DNA of 32,000 nucleotides from Dickeya solani IPO 2222 (GTDB taxonomy: Bacteria > Pseudomonadota > Gammaproteobacteria > Enterobacterales > Enterobacteriaceae). The notes under the pieces are model-generated. The model was given only the letters and a program-made list of their open reading frames with translations. It ran no database searches and was not told the origin of the DNA. The position numbers and the translations under genes were made by a program. The DNA lies in the NCBI RefSeq assembly GCF_001644705.1, contig NZ_CP015137.1, positions 3,270,001 through 3,302,000 of the forward strand. The letters run 5' to 3'. Below are positions 53 to 19,116 of this stretch, one piece after another. The stretch's first letter is position 1. Each line of letters starts with the position of its first letter.

Positions 53-721
53 TTATTGCTCACGCCTTGCCAGATAAAATTGAGTCAGATAGTTAATAGC
101 CAGTTGTGCATCATTTTTTTTAGGATGCAACGTATCATCACCAAATAGTGTTCTTAATTCACCGTCTTTGACCTGTGGTGAAAAAGAGCGGATTATTTCT
201 ACTACCTGGTCAATATAACGCTCATACCAACTGATAGACCGAACCTTCGCCAATATGAGTCGGGCGGTCAGCGAAGAGAATCGCTTTTGCATGACGAGAT
301 GACGCGTAATATGGTCTATATGCACCCATGAGAGCGTTATCTCTTCATAACTCCCGGAATGATAGCGTAATGCTACATCTGCATCAGAGTGGTAATAACC
401 CATAATGTAGCCATGAAAAATCTGGCCCACACCTACCATCCCTGCATTATAACAATCGGCAGCGCGTAGTGCTCCCATACTGGAACAGCCCAGTAATAGT
501 CCCCCGGCCTGAATGAATTCCAGGCACTCCACCACGGTTACAGACATTTTAGTGCCAAACAAGCCATCAGCGATTAATACCGGGCGACCGCTACCCGTTA
601 ATGTTGCCAGTTCCCCACCCTGAATCGGTGGGCGATACTCAATAATAGCGTCACGTTGTTTAATCGCTGACACTGACGGACCACCAAATACGATCGGTTT
701 ACGTTTAGGCGAAAAAAGCAT
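53..721 (-). CDS. TfuA-like protein (accessory partner of YcaO in peptide backbone thioamidation)
   Basis: 222-aa ORF with the family-typical stretches 'PIVFGGPS', 'VLIADGLFG' and 'GCSSMGALRAADCYNAGMVGVGQIF'. The ATG at 721 lies 3 nt after the ycaO stop (725-727), so the two genes are probably translationally coupled. Confidence 0.85.
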   Translation of the reverse strand: MLFSPKRKPIVFGGPSVSAIKQRDAIIEYRPPIQGGELATLTGSGRPVLIADGLFGTKMSVTVVECLEFIQAGGLLLGCSSMGALRAADCYNAGMVGVGQIFHGYIMGYYHSDADVALRYHSGSYEEITLSWVHIDHITRHLVMQKRFSSLTARLILAKVRSISWYERYIDQVVEIIRSFSPQVKDGELRTLFGDDTLHPKKNDAQLAINYLTQFYLARREQ

Positions 722-724
722 AAT

Positions 725-1906
725 TTACCCCACCCGGCCCGGATTAACATGCCAGTCATACAGACCAGGAATAACTGCTTTAACCGTATGAAAAGGTAGA
801 TCGCTCAGCGATAAGTCCACAATATAAACATCCTCGATCTCTTGTTTTTCGAGAATCGTCGCAAGAAATTGCGTTGCTGCTGCCAGGGTTACGGGAGGTT
901 GTTCTGAGATAGATGGTTCTGAGGGAGATGGTTCTGATGACGGCATCGCCACGTTGGCATAATGCTTGTGGAATAACGCCTTCAACTTGCTAAATTTAGA
1001 CGTATCAAAGAAGGATTGTGAGCGGTACTTTTTCTCCTGCCGGTTTAAATCTTCCCGGGAGGCTTGCAGACTCACTACCAGCCCCTGAATCGCTTCCATC
1101 ATTGCGGCATCCAAAGCGTCAGATTCTGTAAAACCTGATGCAGAACCTGCAATCATAAACTTCGGCCCCATACTGACGGGATCATACAAAGCAACATAGT
1201 AAGTGGGTAAGGGGCCGTGTATACGCAACGCGAAACTTTCGTACCCTTTATCGTTAAGATGTTCCCACAATGTCATGGTCGACGCGCGGGAAATGGTCGA
1301 GAGATCAACAAAATCAGCGCAGATTTTGGACAGACAGTTCTTGTAGAACAGGGATGTCGTATTACGTTCAATCGACTCCATGATCGCAAAACAGGTCGCT
1401 TCTTCCAGACTGCCCCCGCAAGCCAGTCCGGAAGTATGCGCTTGTATATTAGCGTTATGTCTGTCGGCACCATGATATGGAAATTGCACTTCAATCGCAG
1501 GGATTCGCCGTTCGCGACCCGTATGCCACTCATATCCGTTTATCCATTGCTGAATATTACATTCCGGAGTGAAACCTAATCGTTGCAGTGTCTTTTTATC
1601 GTCCCTGGTTGCCTGATGATGAAAAATAGCCGGCTCGCACCAGCAAGCGCAATGTCGTTCATACGCTTCCATCAGCGCGCTGCAGGTGGCAGCGGTTAAA
1701 CTACGGCCTTTACCCTGTGTGGATGATATCTGGCCTTTTTTTATCTCCGTTCTCACTGCATTGACGATGGATATTCCAGGAAGATTAATAAACTCACCTA
1801 CTGAGGTGAGCCTTGAAATACCTAAACGCTTACGCAGCGGTAGCGCAAGAGCCAATACTTCTTTCTCGGTATAACGCCTTAAGCCGGGATCAGCTGCTGT
1901 TTTCAA
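725..1906 (-). CDS. YcaO-family ATP-dependent peptide amide-activating enzyme
   Basis: 393 aa. Carries the hallmark YcaO motifs 'GKGRSLTAATCSALMEAYERH' and 'TSGLACGGSLEEATCFAIMESIERN'. The TTG start at 1906 follows a GGGAGGA Shine-Dalgarno (SD) sequence by 8 nt and overlaps the upstream stop (TTGA). Confidence 0.9.
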   Translation of the reverse strand: MKTAADPGLRRYTEKEVLALALPLRKRLGISRLTSVGEFINLPGISIVNAVRTEIKKGQISSTQGKGRSLTAATCSALMEAYERHCACWCEPAIFHHQATRDDKKTLQRLGFTPECNIQQWINGYEWHTGRERRIPAIEVQFPYHGADRHNANIQAHTSGLACGGSLEEATCFAIMESIERNTTSLFYKNCLSKICADFVDLSTISRASTMTLWEHLNDKGYESFALRIHGPLPTYYVALYDPVSMGPKFMIAGSASGFTESDALDAAMMEAIQGLVVSLQASREDLNRQEKKYRSQSFFDTSKFSKLKALFHKHYANVAMPSSEPSPSEPSISEQPPVTLAAATQFLATILEKQEIEDVYIVDLSLSDLPFHTVKAVIPGLYDWHVNPGRVG

Positions 1907-4900
1907 CGATCGTTCCTCCCGGCCGAAAAATCATGGGCAAGGGTCAGGCATTTCAACTGAATGTATTTATTTATCTGTTTTCTGACCGTTAACGGAAGTG
2001 TCGCATAGGTTTTCTGCGCATCAGCCAGACAATGGAGCCTGATCAGTTCTGTTAGTGAATGATAAAGTTGTGCGCTGATTAACTGCGACGTTCCCTGATA
2101 GTCATGAGTAAGCCAGTACCTTATTTCATTTTTTTCCAGTGCGCTGTGCAGCTTGCAGCCGGGGCTAAGGCGTAACAATCCTGGCAGGTTTTTTTCATCT
2201 AACGCCCACTCACGAAGTTCAACGATGTAGTCACCAAATACCACTGCATCGATATGCGTTGAAAGTAGCATTTCTATTGCCTGCTGTGGTTCTTCGACGA
2301 TTGGTTGTCCGCGTACATTGAATGAGGTATTCAGTAAAACAGGAAACCCAGAGAGTTTGCCAAAGGCATTCAACAACGCGTGGATCTCGGCATTGTCATG
2401 CGCCGAGACCGTTTGTACCCGCGCAGTACCATCAACATGGGTGATTGCCGCGAGTTTGTCCCGGCATTCTTTTTTAACCGGCAGAACTTCGAGCATGTAT
2501 TTATGTTCACCATCCCCGTCAAAGTAATGGCTAAGATGTTCGGCGGCGACCATGGGGGCAAAAGGGCGGAAGTCTTCGCGGAATTTCACCCACTTGTTGA
2601 TGAATTTCCAGGTATCCATTGAACATGGGCTTGCCAGTAATGAGCGAGCGCCTAATGCGCGTGGACCAAATTCAGAACCTTTATTGCAGGAAAAATACCC
2701 GATGACCTGTCCGGCATTTAATCGCCCCGCCAGCGCGGCAGTGTCAATGGGGGTGATCGTTATTCTGTCAGCAAAGCGGTTGGTGGCAAAAGCGATGTCG
2801 CGGTAATGATAAACTTTGCCCAGATAATCATGACTAAAGGCATCATTCAGGGTTTTTCCATGCCTTTTGTAATAGGCGGCACTGGCCGCTCCAATCGAAA
2901 TTCCAGCGTCATGTTGTGCGGGGAAGAGATAGAAGTCTTTTAATTTAAGGTGGTTACGAACCTTAAAATTGACGACGGAATTTAACGCCACTCCGCCGGT
3001 CATGACCAGAGGGGTATTATTCGTAATCTGGTAACGTTCGAGGCGGGAAAATATTCCTTTTTCTAATACTGCCTGCACCGAAGCTGCCAGGTTAGCGTAA
3101 TCCATGGGATTGGATTTCTTTTCAGTGAACCGTTGCTTCCACGAATAGCCATACGATATGCCTGACGGTGTTTCAACAGCGATTTCATCAGCATACTCAG
3201 GTGTGCCGTACGGCGCTAATCCCATCAATTTACCGGAGGCTTGCCAGGAATCAAATACGAACTGGCTCACGGAAGCATAGGCTTCTCCAAGGGAAACACT
3301 GCCATTTCTTATATTAAAAGACGGGCTGTATTCCCTGTTTACTAGCCGATAACCCTGCTGATCAAAAGAATAATGCGACACGACATGCAACTGCGGCTTA
3401 ATTCCGTTTAGACCTGCATTCAGGTAGGCGGCAAATTCTTCGCCACTGCATAAAAGATCTTCCCGGCCCACGACGGTTCCGCCCGAACCGTCAACGACCA
3501 GAACATTACCCTGGTTAAATTTTGAACCAGACCAGGCAGCAAAAGCATGGCATAGATGGTGACTGGCAAAGACGGCTTTGGCAGAGAACGGATCAAACAG
3601 GGTAAAATCTGCGGCATGGATCGGCTGATTGAGGCCGATATACTCCGGTGTGGCCGCCTGAATATTATATGCAAAGCAGTTCACATCATGGTAAGTAAGA
3701 CCCGCGGCTGAAAGGCAGTAATCCACCGCCAGGGTACTATCGAGAATATTCCGGCCATCATGTTTAATCCGCGTAAGGCGTTCCAGTTGAATGCCATAAC
3801 GAATTTTACCGTTGACCATAAGGCATGCTGACGCATCATGGCTGGCGGAAATGCCAACAATGACATCGTCATCAGGTTTAATTAGCGGGAGTGAAGACGT
3901 TATATTGGTGTCTATGGTCACCTGAGATGCGAGGGTGATCCGATCGAACAGCCCTTCGGCTTGCAACCATATAGTCTGTTCACCGGTATGGCTTAGCCCC
4001 TCGGTAGAGATAAGTAGCGTGCCATTTTCCCCGATGATTTTCTGACCATCGACTATTGCCGTCAATCGGGTTGTGCGTGCGATGCTTCCCTGAAAACCAG
4101 CGACCAGACCGATTTTTAACCCGGTGTCTGTTGAGGGCAACGTGAGTGTGGTTTCTATCTGCGTCGATCTCTCGACATTGAGATCCCAGCACTGTGGCAT
4201 GTGTGGTGGAAGCGGCTTATTTTCAAATAAGTACAATCCCTGATAAGCCTCACTCAGGCAGATCATACCGGCGTGTAGCGCCAGACGATCGTGGGGATTG
4301 CCCGATTTGATAAGAAAGTCGCGTAGGTTGGCTGCCAGCCCCGCAAGGTAAACAACGGCTGCAGACGTACCTTTTATGGAGTCAGGCTCACCAGCATTAT
4401 TACGTGTTGGGTAGTCAAACTCTCTGACGATAAATTCTATATTGCCATTACCTGCCGGCGTTTTTCCTGGAATGGTATTATTTGTTAATAATAGAGCAAT
4501 ACCGATTGCTTCCGCCGAAGAGCCAGGGAAACGCTGGCGTCCGAAATCGTGACCTACTGATGCCAGTATGTAAGGTATGTCAGTTGCGTCGGAAAAGTTA
4601 GATAAAGCCGCATGCAGCGAATGAGAGAATTCATTTTCAGCAGAAGAATACGCATGAGCTTCGATATGACAGTTTCCAAATTGTTGGACAACACGTTTTC
4701 TCACGCTGTCATAGCCTTGGGAAAAGGCATCAAGGTAGCTGGCGGAAACAACGCGGGAAAAGTCCTCTCCTGAGTAAGAAAAAAGATCGCTGGTCAGTAA
4801 ACCGGAAATTTTAACGGTATGTGGATTTACTCTCTCTCCATTTGATATTTCCGCCAGCCGTACGATTTCGTTTTTTCTTGCACTATCAAATAGAAGGATA

Positions 4901-4920
4901 TTGGTGTTGTTCGTGTCCAT
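1903..4920 (-). CDS. Large fusion protein: C-terminal NodU/CmcH/TobZ-type carbamoyltransferase with an N-terminal ~350-aa extension (possible subtilase-like domain)
   Basis: I place the start at ATG 4920, with TAAGG 6 nt upstream; the track start at 4935 is a TTG. From about residue 355 the sequence matches the carbamoyltransferase family ('VIVGISASHDASACLMVNGKI', 'HHLCHAFAAW', 'MTGGVALNSVVN', 'LLNTSFNVRGQPIV'). In the N-terminal part, 'KGTSAAVVYLAGLAANL' resembles the subtilase serine motif GTSxAxPxVAG. That N-terminal assignment is by eye only. Confidence 0.8.
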   Translation of the reverse strand: MDTNNTNILLFDSARKNEIVRLAEISNGERVNPHTVKISGLLTSDLFSYSGEDFSRVVSASYLDAFSQGYDSVRKRVVQQFGNCHIEAHAYSSAENEFSHSLHAALSNFSDATDIPYILASVGHDFGRQRFPGSSAEAIGIALLLTNNTIPGKTPAGNGNIEFIVREFDYPTRNNAGEPDSIKGTSAAVVYLAGLAANLRDFLIKSGNPHDRLALHAGMICLSEAYQGLYLFENKPLPPHMPQCWDLNVERSTQIETTLTLPSTDTGLKIGLVAGFQGSIARTTRLTAIVDGQKIIGENGTLLISTEGLSHTGEQTIWLQAEGLFDRITLASQVTIDTNITSSLPLIKPDDDVIVGISASHDASACLMVNGKIRYGIQLERLTRIKHDGRNILDSTLAVDYCLSAAGLTYHDVNCFAYNIQAATPEYIGLNQPIHAADFTLFDPFSAKAVFASHHLCHAFAAWSGSKFNQGNVLVVDGSGGTVVGREDLLCSGEEFAAYLNAGLNGIKPQLHVVSHYSFDQQGYRLVNREYSPSFNIRNGSVSLGEAYASVSQFVFDSWQASGKLMGLAPYGTPEYADEIAVETPSGISYGYSWKQRFTEKKSNPMDYANLAASVQAVLEKGIFSRLERYQITNNTPLVMTGGVALNSVVNFKVRNHLKLKDFYLFPAQHDAGISIGAASAAYYKRHGKTLNDAFSHDYLGKVYHYRDIAFATNRFADRITITPIDTAALAGRLNAGQVIGYFSCNKGSEFGPRALGARSLLASPCSMDTWKFINKWVKFREDFRPFAPMVAAEHLSHYFDGDGEHKYMLEVLPVKKECRDKLAAITHVDGTARVQTVSAHDNAEIHALLNAFGKLSGFPVLLNTSFNVRGQPIVEEPQQAIEMLLSTHIDAVVFGDYIVELREWALDEKNLPGLLRLSPGCKLHSALEKNEIRYWLTHDYQGTSQLISAQLYHSLTELIRLHCLADAQKTYATLPLTVRKQINKYIQLKCLTLAHDFSAGRNDR

Positions 4921-4964
4921 ACATCGCCTTATCAACCAGTATTATTATATTTTTTATTTTAAAG

Positions 4965-5798
4965 TCAGAATGAAGGAGTGAAATTCATCCTTTGACAGGA
5001 GTTTTCTATATTTGCCAAATCTGTCACGATCACTTCAGATGAAATACCTACCCCTAATTCATAGGTAACGGCTTTAAGGTTAGTGCATTGCGTAACGGCT
5101 TGCTCTAGCAAAGGAAAAACCTCAGCCACAATTTTTTCTGAGTGAGTGTCACGATATCGCCAATGATGTTTAGGATGAACACTACCGCCTGCAATATGAA
5201 TTTCATTGACCGCTGAGAGTGGCAGACTATTCAAGACATCTTCCGGTTTCAGGCCATAATAGATCGCATAAGAAAATACATGGCTGATATCCAACACCAC
5301 ACCGCATTGCGTCGCGTCAACCAGACGATGAAAAAACTCACCCAGCGTCATGTCGCCCGCGGCAATACTGAACGAGGGAATTTCGGCACAAAATGGAATG
5401 CTGGAAACTTGCTGAATACGTTTCACACCCTCGATTGTCATTGCAAGGACTGACTCGCAGAGCACCGGTGCTGCGAAATAGGGCAGATTATAAGGGCCAA
5501 CATTCCAGATGCCGATATCTTCCAGACACCATGCCGCTTGCAACGCATTACTGATGTTGCTTTGATTTTCCAGTACATCAGGTCGTAATCCATCAATTCC
5601 CGCAGGTTCCATACCTGAAAAATGGTGTATGAGCGGATAGTCAATAAAGTTCTGACGAAATGCCTTGGCTACAGCGAGATCTGGAATAGCGACGACTGAC
5701 AGATGGCTAATTCCATGTTGGGATAATTTCAATAGGTCACTTAATTTATGGCCATAACTGTGAGTATAATCAATCCCTAATCCTACATATGAGCTCAT
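4965..5798 (-). CDS. DUF692 / MNIO family enzyme (MbnB/TglH/BufB-like multinuclear non-heme iron oxidase)
   Basis: 277 aa. Has TIM-barrel-type metal-ligand stretches typical of DUF692: 'GLGIDYTH', 'LEDIG', 'VLDISHVFSY', 'NEIHIAGG', 'YRDTHSE', 'VTYELG'. The ATG at 5798 has an AAGGAG SD 6 nt upstream and overlaps the stop of the preceding gene (ATGA). Confidence 0.8.
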   Translation of the reverse strand: MSSYVGLGIDYTHSYGHKLSDLLKLSQHGISHLSVVAIPDLAVAKAFRQNFIDYPLIHHFSGMEPAGIDGLRPDVLENQSNISNALQAAWCLEDIGIWNVGPYNLPYFAAPVLCESVLAMTIEGVKRIQQVSSIPFCAEIPSFSIAAGDMTLGEFFHRLVDATQCGVVLDISHVFSYAIYYGLKPEDVLNSLPLSAVNEIHIAGGSVHPKHHWRYRDTHSEKIVAEVFPLLEQAVTQCTNLKAVTYELGVGISSEVIVTDLANIENSCQRMNFTPSF

Positions 5799-6379
5799 GC
5801 TGTCTCCTTAAGTGAAATCGCTACTTTCCCATTTTCATTGTGTAAGCGTAAACATGCCGATTTATTCTCGAATGCGACATCGGAGAGATGGCCCGCTTTG
5901 TTCAATAATGATAATGAGAAATACCTGTCGAGAGTAATCTCTTCGGTTGTCGACTTTTCGTCAACATGGCTTATTTTCGATTTCCACGGTGAGTTTTCAG
6001 AGCTTGTTGAAATGCCAGAGTAAATGCCGTCAATCAGAAATATGGTTTTCTCTTCTTCAGTCAGGTTGGATTTTTCGACAACAAATAAGCAAAAACTTTC
6101 AATCAGTGTCCTGCTGTTCCAGTTCCAGAAACTGTCTGACTCGCAATATGCTATTACCAGGGTAAGAAACTGCTCTTTGCTAAAAAAACGTGGGGAAAAG
6201 TGCATGTCTGAATAAAGAACGGTACGCAAATTTCGCTGTCTGGCTGAGCGTTCAACGATCAGTCTTTCGCTGTCCATGGTTCGGGCAAGGTACTGATACT
6301 CTGTCTCTGCATCCGTTATCCGATAGTTGTCGCTATATAGCATCGACACATAGGCTTTCTGTAACTTTTTCGCGTCCAA
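5795..6379 (-). CDS. Hypothetical 194-aa protein; by position a candidate MNIO partner or substrate-recognition subunit (MbnC/TglI/BufC role)
   Basis: The ORF is 4-nt coupled to the DUF692 gene. A TTG start at 6379 lies 6 nt after a GGAGG that is formed by the Gly-Gly codons of the upstream ThiS-like gene; an alternative ATG sits at codon 13. I recognise no family from the sequence, so the functional call rests on context only. Confidence 0.5.
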   Translation of the reverse strand: MDAKKLQKAYVSMLYSDNYRITDAETEYQYLARTMDSERLIVERSARQRNLRTVLYSDMHFSPRFFSKEQFLTLVIAYCESDSFWNWNSRTLIESFCLFVVEKSNLTEEEKTIFLIDGIYSGISTSSENSPWKSKISHVDEKSTTEEITLDRYFSLSLLNKAGHLSDVAFENKSACLRLHNENGKVAISLKETA

Positions 6380-6381
6380 GA

Positions 6382-6642
6382 TTAACCTCCCGAAATAGCT
6401 ACTTCAAATGTCAAATGATCACCATCGGTTAGGATTGGATTGCTATCAACTGACATCGTATTGTTAATAAAAAGGGTAATGAAAGGCTTTAACTTGCAGC
6501 TTTCATTTTTTTCGACGGCTATTAATTTAAATGCCTCAGGATGCATACTCCTGATTTCAAGTAAGATAGCGTCAAGGCTTTTAGCGTCTGTTATTATCTT
6601 ACCAGCGCTTCTTATTGATTCTGGCAGCGATATCTCAATCAT
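6382..6642 (-). CDS. ThiS/MoaD-like small sulfur-carrier protein (C-terminal Gly-Gly)
   Basis: 86 aa, ending '...DGDHLTFEVAISGG' followed directly by the stop. This matches the MoaD/ThiS beta-grasp C-terminus. The gene lies 15 nt downstream of the E1-like gene. Confidence 0.75.
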   Translation of the reverse strand: MIEISLPESIRSAGKIITDAKSLDAILLEIRSMHPEAFKLIAVEKNESCKLKPFITLFINNTMSVDSNPILTDGDHLTFEVAISGG

Positions 6643-6657
6643 CGTTATACAGTTCCA

Positions 6658-7743
6658 TTAATTATTATGGCATTGACATCCAGGACGTTTTTTAGTGGTT
6701 AGTAGCTGATGTTGATTGTTGAGCATGTCTATTTTTAATAGTTTCCCGTTTAAACAGTCGCCAATCCCAAGAATAATCTTTAGTACTTCGTTTGCCTGAT
6801 ATATTCCGAGCATTCCGGGGATCACGCCAACAACGCCATTTTCTGTGCAGGATGGAGCCAATTCTGCTGGAGGGGCTTCCGGGTAGACACAACGATAACA
6901 AGGTGCCTGATTATTCGAACGTGTCATGACTTGCCCGGAAAAACGGAATACAGCCGCGGAGACTACGGGTTTTCCCGCCGCGACAGCTGAATCATTAATA
7001 ATGTACCGGGCTTTAAAATTGTCGGTACAATCTACGATAACGTCGTATCCGTCTATTAATGCATCAATATTTTCTGGCGTTACCCGCTCATCGATAGTAT
7101 TAATCGTGATTTCAGAATTTAGTGCCCGTAATGTATGCAATGCAGAATCAACTTTTTTCTTTTTCAGCATTTTTTCGTTATGAATGACCTGCCGTTGCAA
7201 ATTGCTCAGATCAACAATGTCATGATCGACGATTGTAATTTCACCAACGCCGGCTGCTGCGAGATACAGTAGACAGGATGAGCCGAGTCCTCCGGCACCG
7301 ACAACCAGCACTTTCGCTTGCATAATTTTTAACTGACCATCGGAACCGATGTCTTGTAGAGACAGGTGTCTTGCATAACGTTTTTTATCATTTTCGCTAA
7401 GGCTCAGAGGGTATTCAATTTGATTCCCCTGAGCTTTCCATGCTTCAAATCCCCCCTGAAGGGAGTAGATATTCGAATAGTTAAGTAGCACTAAGTTTAA
7501 TGCAGCGTATCTGGAGCGTAAGCCACTTGCACAAAAGAGTACGATAGGTTTATCTAATTCTATTTTTCTTTTCTTTAGCTCTATTTCTAGAAAGCCACGC
7601 CCGATAGTCAGTGCTTTGGGAATAGTACCGTCAAGATATTCATGGCTCTCTCTTACATCAATCAAAAGAAAATCGTCGCTGTCTTTCAATTCATCTATCG
7701 AGATTGAGCGGATACTGTCAATTCCATCGACTATGTTACTCAT
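6658..7743 (-). CDS. Rhodanese-ThiF/MoeB fusion (E1-like adenylyltransferase/sulfurtransferase)
   Basis: 361 aa. The N-terminal rhodanese domain has the active-site loop 'CASGLRS'. The ThiF/MoeB Rossmann region follows ('VLVVGAGGLGSSCLLYLAAAGVGEITIVDHDIVDLSNLQRQ'), then the paired Cys motifs 'CYRC' and 'CQC'. Confidence 0.9.
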   Translation of the reverse strand: MSNIVDGIDSIRSISIDELKDSDDFLLIDVRESHEYLDGTIPKALTIGRGFLEIELKKRKIELDKPIVLFCASGLRSRYAALNLVLLNYSNIYSLQGGFEAWKAQGNQIEYPLSLSENDKKRYARHLSLQDIGSDGQLKIMQAKVLVVGAGGLGSSCLLYLAAAGVGEITIVDHDIVDLSNLQRQVIHNEKMLKKKKVDSALHTLRALNSEITINTIDERVTPENIDALIDGYDVIVDCTDNFKARYIINDSAVAAGKPVVSAAVFRFSGQVMTRSNNQAPCYRCVYPEAPPAELAPSCTENGVVGVIPGMLGIYQANEVLKIILGIGDCLNGKLLKIDMLNNQHQLLTTKKRPGCQCHNN

Positions 7744-7819
7744 AAATAAATACCTTTCGATTACTGAAAAGTAAAGTATGGTTTTGATATCTTATTTAAG
7801 GTGAGGCGATTAAGGAAGG

Positions 7820-7838
7820 GTGGCCGCATAGCGGCCAC
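7820..7838 (-). terminator. GC-rich stem-loop between the small leading ORF and the enzyme genes (possible attenuator or RNA-stabilising hairpin)
   Basis: Perfect 8-bp stem GTGGCCGC-ATA-GCGGCCAC. On the minus strand it starts 7 nt after the small-ORF stop and is followed by CCUUCCUUAA. The clean T-tract (TTTTTCTT) lies on the plus-strand side. Confidence 0.4.
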
Positions 7839-7844
7839 TTTTTC

Positions 7845-16068: not shown

Positions 16069-17832
16069 ATGCACGATAATTTGAATGAGACGGCTGGCAA
16101 GATAGCCGATATCGTAAAATCCTATCTGGTTCAGGCGCAGGATGATCGTTTTGAGCCGGAAGGGCGTATATTTCTGGAAAAACAAATCAGCGCCTTCCTG
16201 CACGCTTCTGAACCCGTCAGGTTTGTCCTGCCCGGTTTCCCTTGCAAATCCCCCAATATTGTCGACAAATCGTTCGGCATTTTGCCGGATTATGGCGATG
16301 TGATTTCCATCAATCGTCTGGAATCGTTGGCGAAAGCGATTCAGGCGTTATATGAACCCGGCAGTCAGGTGACCATTCTGAGTGATGGTATAACCTTTAA
16401 TGATATTGTCGAGGTTCCGGATGCAATCCGCAAAGAATATAACCAGCAGCTACGCGCGCTGATTCAGTCACCTTATATTGAATGGAAAGAACTCCGGGAT
16501 TTTCTCCCTGAAACGCGTTCGGATGATGAAACCCGTAAAGCGCTGATCAAATCGGCCGGATTACCGTACAAGGGCATCGCTGATTTTATCAAGCGCGTCG
16601 GGAATCACGACGAACTGGCGGCGACGCACGATAAAATCTGCAGTTATTTGTATAACGATGTGCGGCTGAACCGGCAACCTCAGCAGTCTAATGAAGACTA
16701 CCTGAACAGTGTGGCGGAAAAAGCCTATCAGATGATGTACCGCGGTCAGGCCTTGAGCGCGCTGGTGGAGCGAGCCTTCCCTGACGCTATTCGCCTGTCG
16801 GTTCATCAGTATGACAACGACGGCCCGAAATTTACCTTTGGTTTTGCCGACGGCCTTGCCACCGTGCGTCAACCGTGGCACAGCGTGCCGGTTCTGTCGG
16901 CGTCGGGGAATGTATCCCTACAGGGCCATGCCAGCGTTGATAAAGACCGCCATGTGCTGGTGACCTATCAGGGGCGCCCCTGGGTGTATGTGGAAGCTGG
17001 GGACGCCAGCGCCGGGAAGTTCGATTACGAATTACTCAAACAACCGCTGTTCGGCCTGAAGATTGACGATCCGCAGGGGCTGGGGGTTGAGGCGCTGCCG
17101 CCGGCGTTTCTGGCGTTCCTGTCCGCTCAGTTCGGTTTCGTGTGTATCAAGGGCGTGCAGTTTGAGCGCAGCGAGCAGCTGGAAACGTTTTGCCAGCCGT
17201 TCGGCGAGATTTTCCAGTGGCAGTTCGGCGCGGTGCATGTGGTGAAACCGGAGGAAAAACCGAGCGGATTCGTACATTCGCTGGAGAAAACGCCGATACA
17301 CTGGGACCTGAGCATGATCCGGCTGGATCACGAACAGGTTGGCGGTAATCCCTGGTTTACCGCAGAGCGCTTCATGCTGTATTGCAAGACCCCGCCGAAG
17401 AAAGGTGAGGGCAGCACCACGGTGGTGGATGGCCGCATCGTAATGGATATGGTCGGCCCGGACGTGGTGAAAAAATGGGAAGACGTTCACATCACCTATA
17501 ACACCCCGATGACCTATTTCGGCGGCAAACCACGCACTTATCCGCTGGTGTACGCGCACCCGAAAACCGGCAAAAAGGCGTTTCGCTATCAGGAAGGCAG
17601 CGACTCCGACTTGCAGAAGTTTACCGTTGAGGTGGAAGGCGTTTCTGGGCAGGAGAGCCAGGCCTTCATCGGGGAGCTTGACCGGCTGGTGTACGATGAG
17701 CGCTGCATGATTGCCCATGACTGGGATCAGGGCGACCTGCTGATCATCGATAACTGGCAGACGCTGCACGGCCGGCTGCCGATGACCGAAGCATCACGCG
17801 GTCGTGAGCTGTGGCGGGTGCAGGTGTTTTAA
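16069..17832 (+). CDS. Fused isocyanide synthase (IsnA/PvcA-like) and Fe(II)/2-oxoglutarate dioxygenase (IsnB/PvcB, TauD/TfdA-like)
   Basis: 587 aa. The N-terminal half has 'LPGFPCKSPNIVDKSFGILPDYGD', 'ILSDGITFND', 'RLSVHQY' and 'QPWHS'. The C-terminal half has an HxD motif ('IHWDLS') and the distal 'DNWQTLHGR', as in TauD/TfdA enzymes. GGAG SD 7 nt upstream of the ATG. Confidence 0.85.
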   Translation: MHDNLNETAGKIADIVKSYLVQAQDDRFEPEGRIFLEKQISAFLHASEPVRFVLPGFPCKSPNIVDKSFGILPDYGDVISINRLESLAKAIQALYEPGSQVTILSDGITFNDIVEVPDAIRKEYNQQLRALIQSPYIEWKELRDFLPETRSDDETRKALIKSAGLPYKGIADFIKRVGNHDELAATHDKICSYLYNDVRLNRQPQQSNEDYLNSVAEKAYQMMYRGQALSALVERAFPDAIRLSVHQYDNDGPKFTFGFADGLATVRQPWHSVPVLSASGNVSLQGHASVDKDRHVLVTYQGRPWVYVEAGDASAGKFDYELLKQPLFGLKIDDPQGLGVEALPPAFLAFLSAQFGFVCIKGVQFERSEQLETFCQPFGEIFQWQFGAVHVVKPEEKPSGFVHSLEKTPIHWDLSMIRLDHEQVGGNPWFTAERFMLYCKTPPKKGEGSTTVVDGRIVMDMVGPDVVKKWEDVHITYNTPMTYFGGKPRTYPLVYAHPKTGKKAFRYQEGSDSDLQKFTVEVEGVSGQESQAFIGELDRLVYDERCMIAHDWDQGDLLIIDNWQTLHGRLPMTEASRGRELWRVQVF

Positions 17833-17853
17833 TCGTCAGGGTACGGCGCGCAA

Positions 17854-17881
17854 GATAACGGGGCGAATCCGCCCCGTTATC
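17854..17881. terminator. Strong stem-loop between convergent genes
   Basis: 12-bp stem GATAACGGGGCG-AATC-CGCCCCGTTATC, located between the stop at 17832 (+) and the stop at 17896 (-). No obvious U-tract. Confidence 0.5.
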
Positions 17882-17895
17882 CATGCCGAAAAGTC

Positions 17896-19116
17896 CTACG
17901 TGTTTTCTCCCGCCTCCAGCGTCTGGCGTTGGGTCAGCGTCGGGAAGTATTTCATCCACAATGCCACCACCAGCAGGGTGCCGACGCCCCCCAGTACGAT
18001 GGCCGGCACGACCCCCAGCCAGGCGGCGGTCACGCCGGATTCAAATTCCCCCAGTTGATTGGAGGTGCCGATGAAGATGGAGTTGGCGGCACTGACCCGG
18101 CCGCGCATGTCATCCGGCGTTTCCAGTTGCACCAGCGTTGAGCGGATCACTACGCTGACCATGTCGGACGCGCCCAGAAACAGCAACGCAAACAACGACA
18201 GAAACAGATTGGTGGACAGGCCAAACGCGATGGTGGCCGCGCCGAACATCGCGACCGCCGAGAACATGATTTTACCGACGCTACGGGTGAGCGGGCGCCG
18301 GCTCAGGTAGACAGACATCAGTACCGCGCCGAGCGCGGGCGCGCAGCGCAGCAGCCCCAGTCCCCACGGGCCGGTGTGCAGGATACCTTTGGCGACGATG
18401 GGCAACAGTGCGGTGGCGCCGCCGAGCAGCACGGCGAACATATCCAATGAGATGGACCCCAGAATCACCGGATTGCGGCGGATGAAGTTCATGCCGCCAA
18501 ACAGACTTTCCAGGCTCACCGGCGTGCGGGCCAGCGCCTTGTATTCATAGCGCAGGTTGAGCAACACCAGAAACGACATCAGAAAGCAGGCTACGCTGGT
18601 GGCGTAAAGCGTGGTGGCGCCGATCAGGTAAATCAGGCCGCCGAGCGCCGGGCCGACGATGACCGTGGCTTCGCGGGCGGAGGCCATCAGCGCCACGGCG
18701 CGGGACAGCAGAGCGGGCGCGATCAGGTTCGGCAGCAGCGCCTGCGTGGCCGGCATTTCAAATGCCCGCGTCGCGCCCAGCAACGCCGAGCAGGCGTAAA
18801 TCATGGTGGCGCTGATGGTATGGGTGACGTTGCCCAGCACTAACACCAGTATGGTGGCGGCCATCAGCAGGCGGCAGCACAGGATAATCACGCGGCGGTT
18901 GTACTGATCCACGGTGTGACCGGCAACCAGCGTCAGCGCCAGCTGCGGCAGAAACTGTGCCAATCCGACCAGGCCCAGATTCAGGGCGCTGTTGGTCAGG
19001 TCATACATCTGCCAGCCAATCCCAACCACCAGCATCTGAAATGCAAAGGAGGAGGCGATTTGTCCGAGCCAGAAACACAGAAAAGTGGGGTTTTTAAGTG
19101 GGGAAGCGGTTTCCAC
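17896..19116 (-). CDS. MFS transporter (EntS/DUF894-like efflux type)
   Basis: 406 aa with multiple hydrophobic segments. The N-terminus 'FLCFWLGQIASSFAFQM' is typical of this MFS subgroup. The start at 19116 is a GTG with a weak SD, so the start is uncertain. Confidence 0.8.
   Translation of the reverse strand: METASPLKNPTFLCFWLGQIASSFAFQMLVVGIGWQMYDLTNSALNLGLVGLAQFLPQLALTLVAGHTVDQYNRRVIILCCRLLMAATILVLVLGNVTHTISATMIYACSALLGATRAFEMPATQALLPNLIAPALLSRAVALMASAREATVIVGPALGGLIYLIGATTLYATSVACFLMSFLVLLNLRYEYKALARTPVSLESLFGGMNFIRRNPVILGSISLDMFAVLLGGATALLPIVAKGILHTGPWGLGLLRCAPALGAVLMSVYLSRRPLTRSVGKIMFSAVAMFGAATIAFGLSTNLFLSLFALLFLGASDMVSVVIRSTLVQLETPDDMRGRVSAANSIFIGTSNQLGEFESGVTAAWLGVVPAIVLGGVGTLLVVALWMKYFPTLTQRQTLEAGENT

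Follow-up and report, generated by a model that had tools for sequence, protein, structure and literature searches.

The cluster found in Dickeya solani, a plant pathogen, is the Dickeya version (orthologue) of the "std" RiPP pathway (PMC13174530), and two of its genes probably constitute a sulfur relay that is dedicated to this type of cluster and donates sulfur for thioamidation. One of them encodes an E1-like protein that has a rhodanese domain as a fusion partner, and the other a small carrier ending in Gly-Gly. Both were located in a window of 32,000 nucleotides, which is the whole stretch of DNA analysed here. An earlier note, made on the same DNA, had read the pair as an E1/sulfur-carrier module dedicated to a YcaO/TfuA cluster, and this was sustained by the conserved position of the pair, by the restriction of the carrier family to such clusters and by the convergence displayed by another lineage (L047, see below). 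As far as sequences and models indicate, domains and catalytic residues were intact, conservation of the pair was specific to the cluster and the cluster fell within the std family. The E1 and the carrier belong to known families, and neither a new enzyme architecture nor a new chemistry is revealed by the finding. No earlier description of the pair was encountered in literature searches on Dickeya and TfuA-related clusters and on YcaO with sulfur carriers.

The type of modified peptide made by these clusters was only recently described. YcaO/TfuA (StdGH) thioamidate the Asn of SNKEWQE, a carbamoyltransferase gives rise to homocitrulline and an MNIO hydroxylates the homocitrulline (PMC13174530). 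The std cluster of Streptomyces thermodiastaticus comprises StdA and StdD to StdI (Hebron et al., bioRxiv 2026, PMC13174530), and Dickeya orthologues appear in Table S2 of the same paper, whose main text does not mention ThiF, MoeB or rhodanese. The earlier note had correctly recognised a YcaO/TfuA cluster and had overlooked its orthology to this pathway. A precursor with the SNKEWQE motif, partner-MNIO, a NodU-type carbamoyltransferase fusion and YcaO-TfuA, i.e. the features that define a std-type cluster, were all present and formed a tight operon in the order precursor-E1-carrier-partner-MNIO-StdF-YcaO-TfuA (Table 1). The E1 and carrier genes adjoined the genes of the precursor and the partner and were separated by about 5 kb from ycaO-tfuA, a distance which counts against a relay. 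The gene of the MFS exporter, as found in relatives, lay outside the window, past its left end. The 194-aa MNIO partner protein had no Pfam match, and Pfam did not detect an S8 peptidase domain in the N-terminal 400 aa of the StdF-like protein.

The cluster lay within a low-GC island (45% vs 57%). PLSDB plasmids searched by megablast contained no match to the cluster, and protein identities indicated a chromosomal Dickeya locus. An Rfam scan of the window found nothing. The stem-loop located just 3' of the precursor stop has a GC-rich core of 8 bp (7820-7838) without a U-tract and probably serves to stabilise or attenuate the transcript, which would set the ratio of precursor to enzymes. Promoter and terminator scans gave match counts in the region that were not above shuffled expectation.

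Table 1. Features of the std-type cluster of Dickeya solani, in coordinates of the window
Feature	Position	Strand	Supporting observation
TfuA, StdH orthologue	53..721	-	PF07812 1.6e-23; NF033432 1.5e-31
YcaO, thioamide-forming type, StdG orthologue	725..1906	-	PF02624 8.9e-39; best NCBIfam match, McrA-glycine thioamidation YcaO
StdF-like protein, 1010 aa, N-terminal domain + NodU-type carbamoyltransferase	1903..4935	-	Carbam_trans_N, Carbam_trans_C
MNIO (MbnB/TglH/ChrH family), StdE orthologue	4965..5798	-	PF05114 6.6e-25; 42-43% identity to Streptomyces StdE region
MNIO partner protein, 194 aa, StdD orthologue	5795..6379	-	tblastn matches the gene at the StdD position in Streptomyces loci
Sulfur-carrier protein, 86 aa, predicted beta-grasp, CysO/MoaD/ThiS superfamily	6382..6642	-	Gly-Gly directly before stop
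E1-like adenylyltransferase/sulfurtransferase, 361 aa	6658..7743	-	N-terminal rhodanese + C-terminal ThiF/MoeB domain
ThiF/MoeB adenylation domain, residues 123-357	6673..7377	-	GAGGLG, R122/R125, R184, K197, D241, C282xxC285, C299, C356xC358
Rhodanese domain, residues 18-104, six-residue sulfurtransferase loop C71-ASGLR-S	7432..7692	-	Pfam; C71, G74, R76 invariant (std + generic homologues)
Stem-loop just 3' of precursor stop	7808..7850	-	-19.1 kcal/mol, z = -4.5
Precursor peptide, 40 aa, StdA orthologue	7845..7967	-	SNKEWQE identical to conserved StdA motif (PMC13174530)
Precursor core + follower S34-N-K-E-W-Q-E40	7848-7868	-	
Sigma-70-like promoter match TTGACA-17-TAATAT	8036..8064	-	~70 nt upstream of precursor ATG; consensus match only

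The reading frame of the 361-aa protein, with its N-terminal rhodanese (CASGLRS loop) and C-terminal ThiF/MoeB domain (GAGGLG), was confirmed as it had been described before. Pfam assigned ThiF (PF00899, 1.4e-80) and Rhodanese (PF00581, 2.6e-18) to it, and GlpE- and PspE-type models matched the rhodanese region as well. The G149-G154 nucleotide loop, R122, R125, R184, K197, D241 and the crossover-loop C299 were invariant. Only one of the two "CxxC pairs" reported previously is indeed CxxC (C282-YR-C285); the other is CxC (C356-Q-C358), and four cysteines are available in these zinc-type motifs. The second pair, one residue shorter, was common to all E1s of std clusters, in contrast to CPxC in generic homologues. 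The best PDB matches were Uba4, MoeB and ThiF (1e-47 to 1e-50). The E1 would presumably adenylate the C-terminal glycine of its cognate carrier, to which adjacency and co-conservation link it.

A rhodanese placed N-terminal to the E1 domain had been thought unusual. The order was on the contrary common, being found in 124 of the 125 homologues examined and in all of the best 120 database homologues. The E1 is a full-length member of the curated group NF006444/PRK08762, scoring 511.4 bits for a cutoff of 449, with residues 5-360 aligned to profile positions 8-369 of 387 (a generic member, P0100, scored 547.7 bits). Housekeeping homologues commonly display the same order: two sampled generic members were encoded in NifU-E1-ThiS-cysteine synthase-JAB operons, which belong to primary sulfur metabolism (CysO-type cysteine synthesis). 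The MoeZ model NF005902 gave 300 bits for a cutoff of 647, only the E1 part being collinear. The Dickeya E1 was 97% identical to a D. fangzhongdai protein annotated MoeB. Its identity to generic homologues was 48-50%, and these have the catalytic residues in common with it. The E1s of std clusters formed one clade in 46 of 50 bootstraps of an NJ tree, a distance-based method on which their monophyly depends; raw identity alone did not give this monophyly, since Burkholderiaceae E1s were as close to generic E1s as to the Dickeya E1 (~48% in either case).

The 86-aa protein was confirmed as an open reading frame that ends in ISGG-stop, and its presumed beta-grasp-type nature agreed with a predicted CysO/MoaD/Urm1-type fold. 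Its C-terminus reads VAISGG-stop, with a free Gly-Gly for which no trimming is needed. The gene sits 15 nt past the E1 stop, and its last codons contain a GGAGG Shine-Dalgarno that precedes the following gene, which starts with TTG. An AlphaFold2 model (pLDDT 85.7, pTM 0.78) retrieved with Foldseek CysO (4n6e_B, TM 0.76), MoaD, M. tuberculosis CysO, Urm1 and SAMP1, all with TM of 0.6-0.78 and probability of 1.00, which is consistent with a beta-grasp fold. A profile of the carrier orthologues compared with the PDB also gave an end-to-end alignment with CysO-type chains (4n6e_B, E = 0.015). Residues A82, I83, G85 and G86 were invariant across nine orthologues from two orders.

The carrier itself had no Pfam or NCBIfam match. 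The Pfam ThiS model (PF02597) did not match the Dickeya carrier up to E = 10 and reached Burkholderiaceae orthologues at E ~0.01, under the gathering score; this lack of a significant ThiS match counts against a relay. The carrier represents a divergent subfamily, recognised by predicted fold and not by a sequence model. In UniRef, a D. solani protein that is 100% identical to it is named 'MoaD/ThiS family protein'; another database source labels it 'ubiquitin family protein'.

The E1/carrier pair occupied the same position in every readable std cluster of Enterobacterales and Burkholderiaceae, and the same order was encountered in D. undicola, Xenorhabdus, Burkholderia, Paraburkholderia, Caballeronia and metagenomic relatives. 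A DNA-pattern scan for SNKEWQE had given 34 matches in fixed 8-kb blocks. Blocks ending at the precursor, i.e. those of Pseudomonas fluorescens (L004), Polyangiaceae (L011 and L032) and Photorhabdus kayaii (L016), were left out of the E1/carrier comparison. About half of the 34 matches (Saccharibacteria, Firmicutes, Bacteroidales) were taken as unrelated, std genes not being seen there. A search of 5.8 billion proteins gave only 26 carrier clusters; each context examined was a std cluster, and none of another kind was encountered. Both genes were under purifying selection, with dN/dS of 0.03-0.04 for the E1 and 0.21 for the carrier. They have, in addition, been kept together in two orders of bacteria, and the observation is not due to chance.

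A third, unrelated lineage, represented by locus L047, displayed YcaO-IscS-TfuA-ThiF-ThiS in one operon. Its ThiF is plain and its ThiS bona fide, the latter being unrelated to the Dickeya carrier apart from the C-terminal tail. The location of these sulfur genes within a ycaO-tfuA operon is in favour of a sulfur donor dedicated to thioamidation. Std-type clusters have gained sulfur relays at least twice and differently, as a rhodanese-E1 with a CysO-like carrier or as IscS with ThiF and ThiS. The E1/carrier pair was absent from Streptomyces std clusters and from at least two other lineages (L048 and L050). As these clusters lack the pair and Na2S alone suffices for StdGH in vitro, the pair is not chemically required.

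The accompanying genes varied among relatives. Enterobacterales displayed genes for a GNAT and a PF05118 hydroxylase, added after the MFS gene, and in Burkholderiaceae DUF6445 was inserted between the E1 and carrier genes. DUF6445 and GNAT were also present in the E1-less clusters L048 and L050. The extra tailoring genes of Pseudomonadota (GNAT, PF05118 hydroxylase, DUF6445) could go with another sulfur-dependent step, which counts against a relay.

In the proposed relay, the ThiF/MoeB domain of the E1 would adenylate the C-terminal Gly-Gly of the carrier. Cys71, in the rhodanese fused at the N-terminus, would then attack the acyl-adenylate as a persulfide that might be loaded from a housekeeping cysteine desulfurase or from thiosulfate, and crossover-loop Cys299 may assist in resolving the intermediate. 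The expected product is carrier-Gly-Gly-COSH. TfuA, presumably the user of this thiocarboxylate, would accept it and free an equivalent of sulfide in the active site of YcaO, so that the carrier would be a substrate of both the E1 and the TfuA of the cluster. Lys36 would next be carbamoylated, EWQE cut off and hydroxylation carried out by the MNIO, as published for Streptomyces. Enterobacterales and Burkholderiaceae would need such a module because their housekeeping MoeB and ThiF are, presumably, without rhodanese and tied to committed pathways.

Among the alternatives, the carrier thiocarboxylate could be made as proposed and its sulfur directed to a second, Pseudomonadota-specific modification, not (only) to the Asn thioamide. 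Such a modification could be a C-terminal peptide thiocarboxylate formed after removal of EWQE, or another thio-substitution. The pair indeed co-occurs with the above tailoring genes, foreign to the Streptomyces cluster, thioamidation in vitro needs no carrier, and the thiocarboxylate siderophores PDTC and quinolobactin are fed by carrier thiocarboxylates (PMC1779556). This explanation nevertheless appears unlikely: the cluster is devoid of a Pdt/Qbs-type carboxylate-AMP ligase or CoA-transferase, no encoded protein other than TfuA has a documented activity on carrier-COSH, L047 interleaves its sulfur-relay genes with ycaO and tfuA, and DUF6445 and GNAT are found even in clusters that lack an E1 (L048 and L050). 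There is likewise a slim chance that carrier-COSH also delivers, with the Pseudomonadota-specific tailoring genes, a second sulfur absent from the Streptomyces product, e.g. as a peptidyl thiocarboxylate at the C-terminus exposed by removal of EWQE. The products of Dickeya, Xenorhabdus and Burkholderia would in that case be chemically distinct, doubly sulfurated peptides.

It is very unlikely that the pair consists of MoeB/MoaD or CysO-pathway genes of the housekeeping type which happen to adjoin RiPP genes and serve molybdopterin or cysteine synthesis. Such a role is suggested by the public annotation of the E1 as 'molybdopterin-synthase adenylyltransferase MoeB', by its score above the NF006444 cutoff and by the cysteine-synthesis-type operons of its nearest generic relatives. 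However, moaE, cysM/PALP and JAB genes were not adjacent, the pair is part of the operon, flanked there by the genes of the precursor and the partner, and it moves with the cluster across orders, within an island of low GC. The carrier family was moreover not found in other contexts and the E1s of std clusters form their own clade.

The earlier note had also considered an MccB/PaaA-like E1 that acts on the peptide C-terminus to make a peptidyl thiocarboxylate. Such an enzyme, working on the precursor, could likewise form a peptidyl adenylate or imide, and the small protein would then be an accessory. MccB and PaaA are ThiF-fold enzymes of RiPP clusters that were among the PDB matches, and a new peptide C-terminus does arise from StdF proteolysis. 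The similarity was however confined to the Rossmann core (~1e-14, residues 118-266 only), whereas MoeB, ThiF and Uba4 matched over the whole domain. The N-terminus of the E1 is a rhodanese and not a peptide-clamp/RRE domain, every E1 was accompanied by an invariant, co-evolving beta-grasp partner ending in Gly-Gly, and L047 carries a plain ThiF with a bona fide ThiS, all of which makes this proposal highly improbable. Just as improbable is a ubiquitin-like conjugation of the carrier to a target lysine or a Cap2/Bil-type anti-phage module, for which a ubiquitin-like fold, the 'ubiquitin family protein' label and partial matches of PADLOC Cap2 'E1-E2' models to the E1 (~5e-20) could be invoked, since those matches were limited to the Rossmann core, the carrier had no PADLOC match, E2 or JAB domains and defence neighbours were missing, and a fused catalytic rhodanese within a RiPP operon indicates sulfur transfer.

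A dedicated sulfur relay bears on the physiological sulfur donor, the least settled step of bacterial YcaO/TfuA thioamidation. Reconstitutions of YcaO/TfuA, std included, run on millimolar sulfide, Na2S being the sulfur source for the Streptomyces std enzymes (PMC13174530), and sulfur delivery in Pseudomonadota is still being investigated by the Mitchell laboratory (PMC13063428). A RiPP cluster with its own E1 and carrier provides a self-contained and genetically tractable system in which transfer from carrier-COSH to TfuA and to YcaO can be tested with cognate partners. The acquisition of relays at least twice by std clusters suggests that sulfur supply is host-dependent and can be limiting, which is of practical relevance when thioamidated peptides are to be produced heterologously in hosts like E. 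coli.

Compared with the Streptomyces std cluster, that of Dickeya shares the SNKEWQE end of the precursor and orthologous partner, MNIO, NodU-type carbamoyltransferase fusion, YcaO and TfuA in the same order. The Streptomyces cluster proceeds from stdA straight to stdD (consecutive gene IDs) without E1 or carrier, whereas both are inserted after the precursor in the Dickeya type. The E1 resembles NF006444/PRK08762 ('molybdopterin-synthase adenylyltransferase MoeB') in its full-length collinear architecture and catalytic residues, and the best matches of the carrier are CysO-type; unlike generic members, E1s of std clusters form a separate clade, display CxC for CPxC and have no C-terminal tail. 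In contrast to CysO-type operons, the RiPP operon around the pair encodes neither a cysteine synthase nor a JAB protease, and the Gly-Gly of the carrier is free. Both catalytic modules, the six-residue rhodanese loop and the presumed chemistry (adenylation followed by persulfide thiocarboxylation) are shared with MoeZ/MoeZR, MoeBR, MOCS3 and Uba4. The order of the modules is reversed in MoeZ, MoeBR, MOCS3 and Uba4; in Uba4 the rhodanese region, aligned at residues 334-370, follows the E1 domain.

PdtF/PdtH/PdtG (PDTC) and QbsC/QbsE/QbsD (thioquinolobactin) likewise include their own rhodanese-fused E1 and ThiS/MoaD-like carrier (PMC1779556). The Pdt and Qbs systems differ in having a C-terminal rhodanese, a JAB protease that trims the carrier and an AMP-ligase that activates a small-molecule carboxylate, whereas the Dickeya cluster has neither JAB nor ligase and its acceptor route presumably runs through TfuA/YcaO to the peptide backbone. 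That TfuA hydrolyses ThiS thiocarboxylate to feed YcaO, as had been stated in the earlier note, agrees with the discussion by the Mitchell laboratory in PMC13063428. According to that discussion, YcaOs that form thioamides rely, outside high-sulfide habitats, on a ThiS homologue in thiocarboxylated form together with TfuA, and thioamidation of McrA by ThiS-COSH, TfuA and YcaO is attributed to Liu et al. (Nat Chem Biol 2021, as cited in PMC13063428). Neighbours of archaeal ycaO-tfuA include thiF, moeB, moaD and rhodanese genes (PMC5589413). The Dickeya cluster shares with the McrA and archaeal systems a TfuA-YcaO pair and, probably, an E1-made proteinaceous thiocarboxylate donor. It departs from them in that its putative donor is a cluster-specific CysO/MoaD-like carrier and not ThiS proper, in that the E1 has a fused rhodanese, and in that E1 and carrier are encoded within a bacterial RiPP operon instead of being borrowed from primary metabolism.

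The eight minus-strand genes at the left of the window formed a tight operon, which continued past the window's left end. The C-terminus of the precursor, SNKEWQE, was the conserved StdA motif of std, a thioamide RiPP pathway that a preprint of 2026 (PMC13174530) described from Streptomyces thermodiastaticus; the 97 orthologous loci of its Table S2 include those of Dickeya solani and D. fangzhongdai, and the host std cluster was already described in 2026. In S. thermodiastaticus, StdG and StdH (YcaO and TfuA) thioamidate an Asn, StdF converts a Lys to homocitrulline by carbamoylation and removes EWQE, and the homocitrulline is hydroxylated twice by StdD and StdE (partner and MNIO), Na2S (5-20 mM) having been used for reconstituted thioamidation (PMC13174530). 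In contrast to the Dickeya operon, the S. thermodiastaticus cluster (stdA, D, E, F, G, H and I, with consecutive gene numbers) contained neither the rhodanese-ThiF protein, here called E1, nor the 86-aa carrier, and the terms ThiF, MoeB and rhodanese were absent from the main text of PMC13174530. The E1/carrier pair is therefore an accessory of Pseudomonadota std versions, undiscussed in the std paper.

Genes of the std operon and of a neighbouring gene set in the window
Feature	Coordinates	Strand	Gene set
40-aa precursor peptide, MDKAQELELAVAELNAENTEAENEILLDVTCMVSNKEWQE	7845-7967	-	std
361-aa E1	6658-7743	-	std
86-aa protein (carrier), end VAISGG-stop	6382-6642	-	std
194-aa protein	5795-6379	-	std
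MNIO	4965-5798	-	std
1010-aa carbamoyltransferase fusion	1903-4935	-	std
YcaO	725-1906	-	std
TfuA	53-721	-	std
DIT1_PvcA homologue	13956-15107		isonitrile-type
HAD phosphatase	15111-15797		isonitrile-type
DIT1_PvcA-TauD fusion	16069-17832		isonitrile-type
MFS_3 exporter	17896-19116	-	isonitrile-type

A GC-rich, 8-bp stem-loop without U-tract lay directly 3' of the precursor stop (7808-7850, minus strand, z = -4.5) and a promoter-like TTGACA-17-TAATAT (8036-8064, minus strand) preceded the precursor ATG by about 70 nt; together they could set the ratio of precursor to enzyme transcripts. Peptidase_S8 (Pfam) was not found in the N-terminal 400 aa of the StdF-like protein (3736-4935, minus strand), where the GTSAA motif was kept; the same region of the StdF homologue in the std-like locus L047 matched this domain (3.9e-12).

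G+C content was 45 % in the std cluster against 57 % in the rest of the window, and base composition was mosaic across positions 1-32000 (61-64 % at 8.7-12 kb, 37 % at 13-14 kb). Because relatives of the cluster had, in addition, Mu/IS21 transposase remnants or an integrase at their borders, horizontal acquisition is suggested. The adjoining high-G+C module (8687-13061) encoded an ornithine cyclodeaminase/mu-crystallin homologue, a D-serine-dehydratase-like PLP enzyme, a LysR regulator and an MFS transporter; the ORF of the first, listed with 416 aa, probably has its start further downstream. The isonitrile-type genes (13956-19116) were separate from the std cluster, and the first of their PvcA-like proteins had repeated STQI(N/S)N units at its C-terminus.

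Pfam domains of E1 were Rhodanese (residues 18-104) and ThiF (residues 123-357). The motifs C71-ASGLRS, G149-AGGLG and C282-YRC and the crossover-loop C299 were found, and all residues expected for adenylation and persulfide transfer were intact and invariant in an alignment of homologues. E1 was 97 % identical to the D. fangzhongdai protein and under purifying selection (dN/dS 0.03-0.04). The rhodanese loop, the GAGGLG and one CxxC of the earlier note were recovered, but its second CxxC was a CxC (C356-Q-C358). That note had also considered the domain order unusual, an impression due to published biochemistry centring on E1s with a C-terminal rhodanese fusion, and this view has to be abandoned. 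NCBIfam NF006444 (PRK08762, named MoeB) matched residues 5-360 at 511 bits, above its curated cutoff (449), and the MoeZ model scored only 300 against a required 647. Each of the best 120 database homologues gave one local alignment with 91-100 % query coverage; in a domain-wise phmmer check, 124 of 125 sequences displayed an N-terminal rhodanese, the sole exception being a MoeZ added as outgroup. Generic members on long contigs (n = 2) sat in NifU-(cysteine desulfurase)-E1-ThiS-PALP-JAB operons, which are of the CysO/CysM/Mec type of cysteine synthesis (gene neighbourhood in Iyer et al. 2006, PMC1779556). In sequence space, the N-terminal order is that of a populous, curated family of primary metabolism. 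No PDB chain collinear with E1 was found by profile comparison; in Uba4 the two domains are reversed, and the hits for the E1 rhodanese were to separate PDB proteins.

The carrier had no Pfam or NCBIfam match and was 100 % identical to a database Dickeya solani protein; together with the identity of E1 to the D. fangzhongdai protein, this assigns the window to D. solani or a very close relative. Its AlphaFold2 model, with 12 orthologues as input, was confident (pLDDT 85.7, pTM 0.78) and displayed as top Foldseek matches CysO of the BexX/CysO complex (4n6e_B, TM 0.76), followed by MoaD, M. tuberculosis CysO, Urm1 and SAMP1. A nine-orthologue profile aligned end to end with CysO chains at marginal E-values (0.015 and 0.24). 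The A-I-x-G-G terminus was invariant from Dickeya to Burkholderia, and dN/dS (0.21) indicated purifying selection. The Gly-Gly-ended beta-grasp-type protein first noticed beside E1 was in this way confirmed by its ORF, predicted CysO-like fold and selection.

Std loci were gathered by a degenerate DNA-pattern scan for SNKEWQE-stop in one genome per species, and the window proteins were compared with them by tblastn. D. undicola and Xenorhabdus ehlersii displayed the order precursor-E1-carrier-partner-MNIO, and Burkholderia sp. TSV86 and Paraburkholderia sp. GAS199 precursor-E1-DUF6445-carrier-partner-MNIO; in the Streptomyces loci (n = 6) the partner directly followed the precursor, E1 and carrier being absent. 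The closest non-Dickeya E1 homologues (n = 7, 65-73 % identity) had Photorhabdus and Xenorhabdus as named sources, and both fetched contexts (L037, L039) were complete std clusters ordered precursor, E1, carrier, partner, MNIO, StdF, YcaO, TfuA, MFS, GNAT, PF05118 hydroxylase. The carrier family was tiny (26 clusters at 90 % identity in 5.8 billion proteins searched), its named sources being Dickeya, Erwinia, Xenorhabdus, Photorhabdus, Burkholderia, Paraburkholderia and Caballeronia; the two most distant carriers checked were both in std clusters, adjoining a rhodanese-ThiF E1. When the std-associated E1s (n = 13) were placed with 111 generic homologues in a neighbour-joining tree, they were monophyletic in 46 of 50 bootstraps; they also had the CxC signature in common. 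Given these std-only contexts, the monophyly and the shared CxC, the module was recruited once and then kept with the std cluster.

The genes past TfuA in L037 (17660-20386) and L039 (8827-11524), which encode an MFS transporter, a GNAT acetyltransferase and a PF05118 protein of the Asp/Asn beta-hydroxylase family, would be expected just beyond the window's left end; the GNAT and PF05118 genes suggest further tailoring absent from the Streptomyces pathway. The DUF6445 protein (about 209 aa; seen at L008 1471-2166 and L024 4685-5314 and in L040, L041, L047, L048 and L050), located between E1 and carrier genes in Burkholderiaceae, was placed after StdF or after TfuA in other std-like clusters and was absent from Dickeya/Xenorhabdus-type clusters. 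Six Saccharibacteria/Microsaccharimonas loci (L002, L014, L020, L022, L033, L034) matched the 24-nt degenerate SNKEWQE pattern, but tblastn found no std genes in them; this excess above chance for one clade probably reflects a conserved segment of an unrelated protein.

L047 (35 % G+C) came from scanning metagenomes with a profile for MNIO. One strand carried precursor, partner, MNIO, StdF, DUF6445 and GNAT genes, and the opposite strand (6923-12281) a divergent operon for M42 peptidase, YcaO, an IscS-subfamily cysteine desulfurase, TfuA, ThiF (269 aa, without rhodanese domain) and ThiS (72 aa, above the TIGR01683 cutoff), the latter unrelated to the Dickeya carrier except for the last 20 residues. 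L047 is an independent route to a sulfur relay within the same RiPP family. Its genes for sulfur mobilisation are intermingled with ycaO and tfuA, which is the most direct comparative evidence that E1/carrier-type modules serve the thioamidation step. E1 was found neither in the sequence at hand of std-like L048 nor in L050 (11 kb, whole cluster). L050 displayed two precursor genes (1300-1701), the second ending in SCKEWQE, with Cys replacing the thioamidated Asn of StdA; these were followed by a GNAT gene and by a partner protein of 405 aa, much longer than usual for this family of clusters. The locus of Streptomyces barringtoniae (L031 5851-7407) contained a canonical MoeZ, ThiF then C-terminal rhodanese (NF005902, 758 bits), whose end was separated by 192 bp from the stdA-like precursor downstream of it on that strand; this could be coincidental adjacency to a housekeeping moeZ. 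In other Streptomyces std loci, tblastn revealed no E1. Actinomycetes possess a promiscuous MoeZ serving several carriers, whereas in enterobacteria neither MoeB nor ThiF has a rhodanese domain and both are tied to IscS/TusA/ThiI in committed pathways, a difference which may account for the module's presence in some lineages only.

The most economical reading of these sequences is a relay in which E1 would adenylate the carrier and convert the adenylate to a thiocarboxylate via a Cys71 persulfide, whereupon TfuA would hydrolyse the thiocarboxylate and pass sulfide to YcaO for thioamidation of Asn35. The carrier C-terminus is a free Gly-Gly, so a JAB protease is unnecessary. The action of TfuA on ThiS-COSH, as invoked in the earlier note, is an established step (Liu et al. 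2021, in the summary given by the same laboratory in PMC13063428). It is rather improbable that the pair instead feeds a second sulfur-dependent modification in Pseudomonadota products, even though extra tailoring genes co-occur with it and thioamidation chemistry works in vitro without it. The formerly proposed alternative of E1 acting directly on the precursor peptide, like MccB or PaaA, is disfavoured by its similarity profile in the PDB comparison, by an N-terminus without peptide-binding domain and by the Gly-Gly partner that always accompanies it. Housekeeping genes adjoining RiPP genes by chance are contradicted by the restriction of the pair to std clusters. A defence or ubiquitin-like conjugation module finds no support, Cap2 matches being partial (Rossmann part only) and E2 and JAB absent.

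All parts of the E1-carrier-TfuA-YcaO module came from known families, and the idea that TfuA/YcaO are fed by a carrier thiocarboxylate which an E1 produces is already published. Genes for thiF, moeB, moaD and rhodanese near archaeal ycaO-tfuA were noted in 2017 (PMC5589413), and a 2021 survey names a 'MoeB' gene in the figure legend for one TfuA cluster. The new element is a modest one: within a thioamide RiPP operon, rhodanese-E1 and CysO-like carrier form a conserved pair specific to the cluster, and a second lineage, L047, reaches the same function by other means. Cluster-encoded E1/carrier modules as such had precedents in the pathways for PDTC and quinolobactin (PMC1779556).
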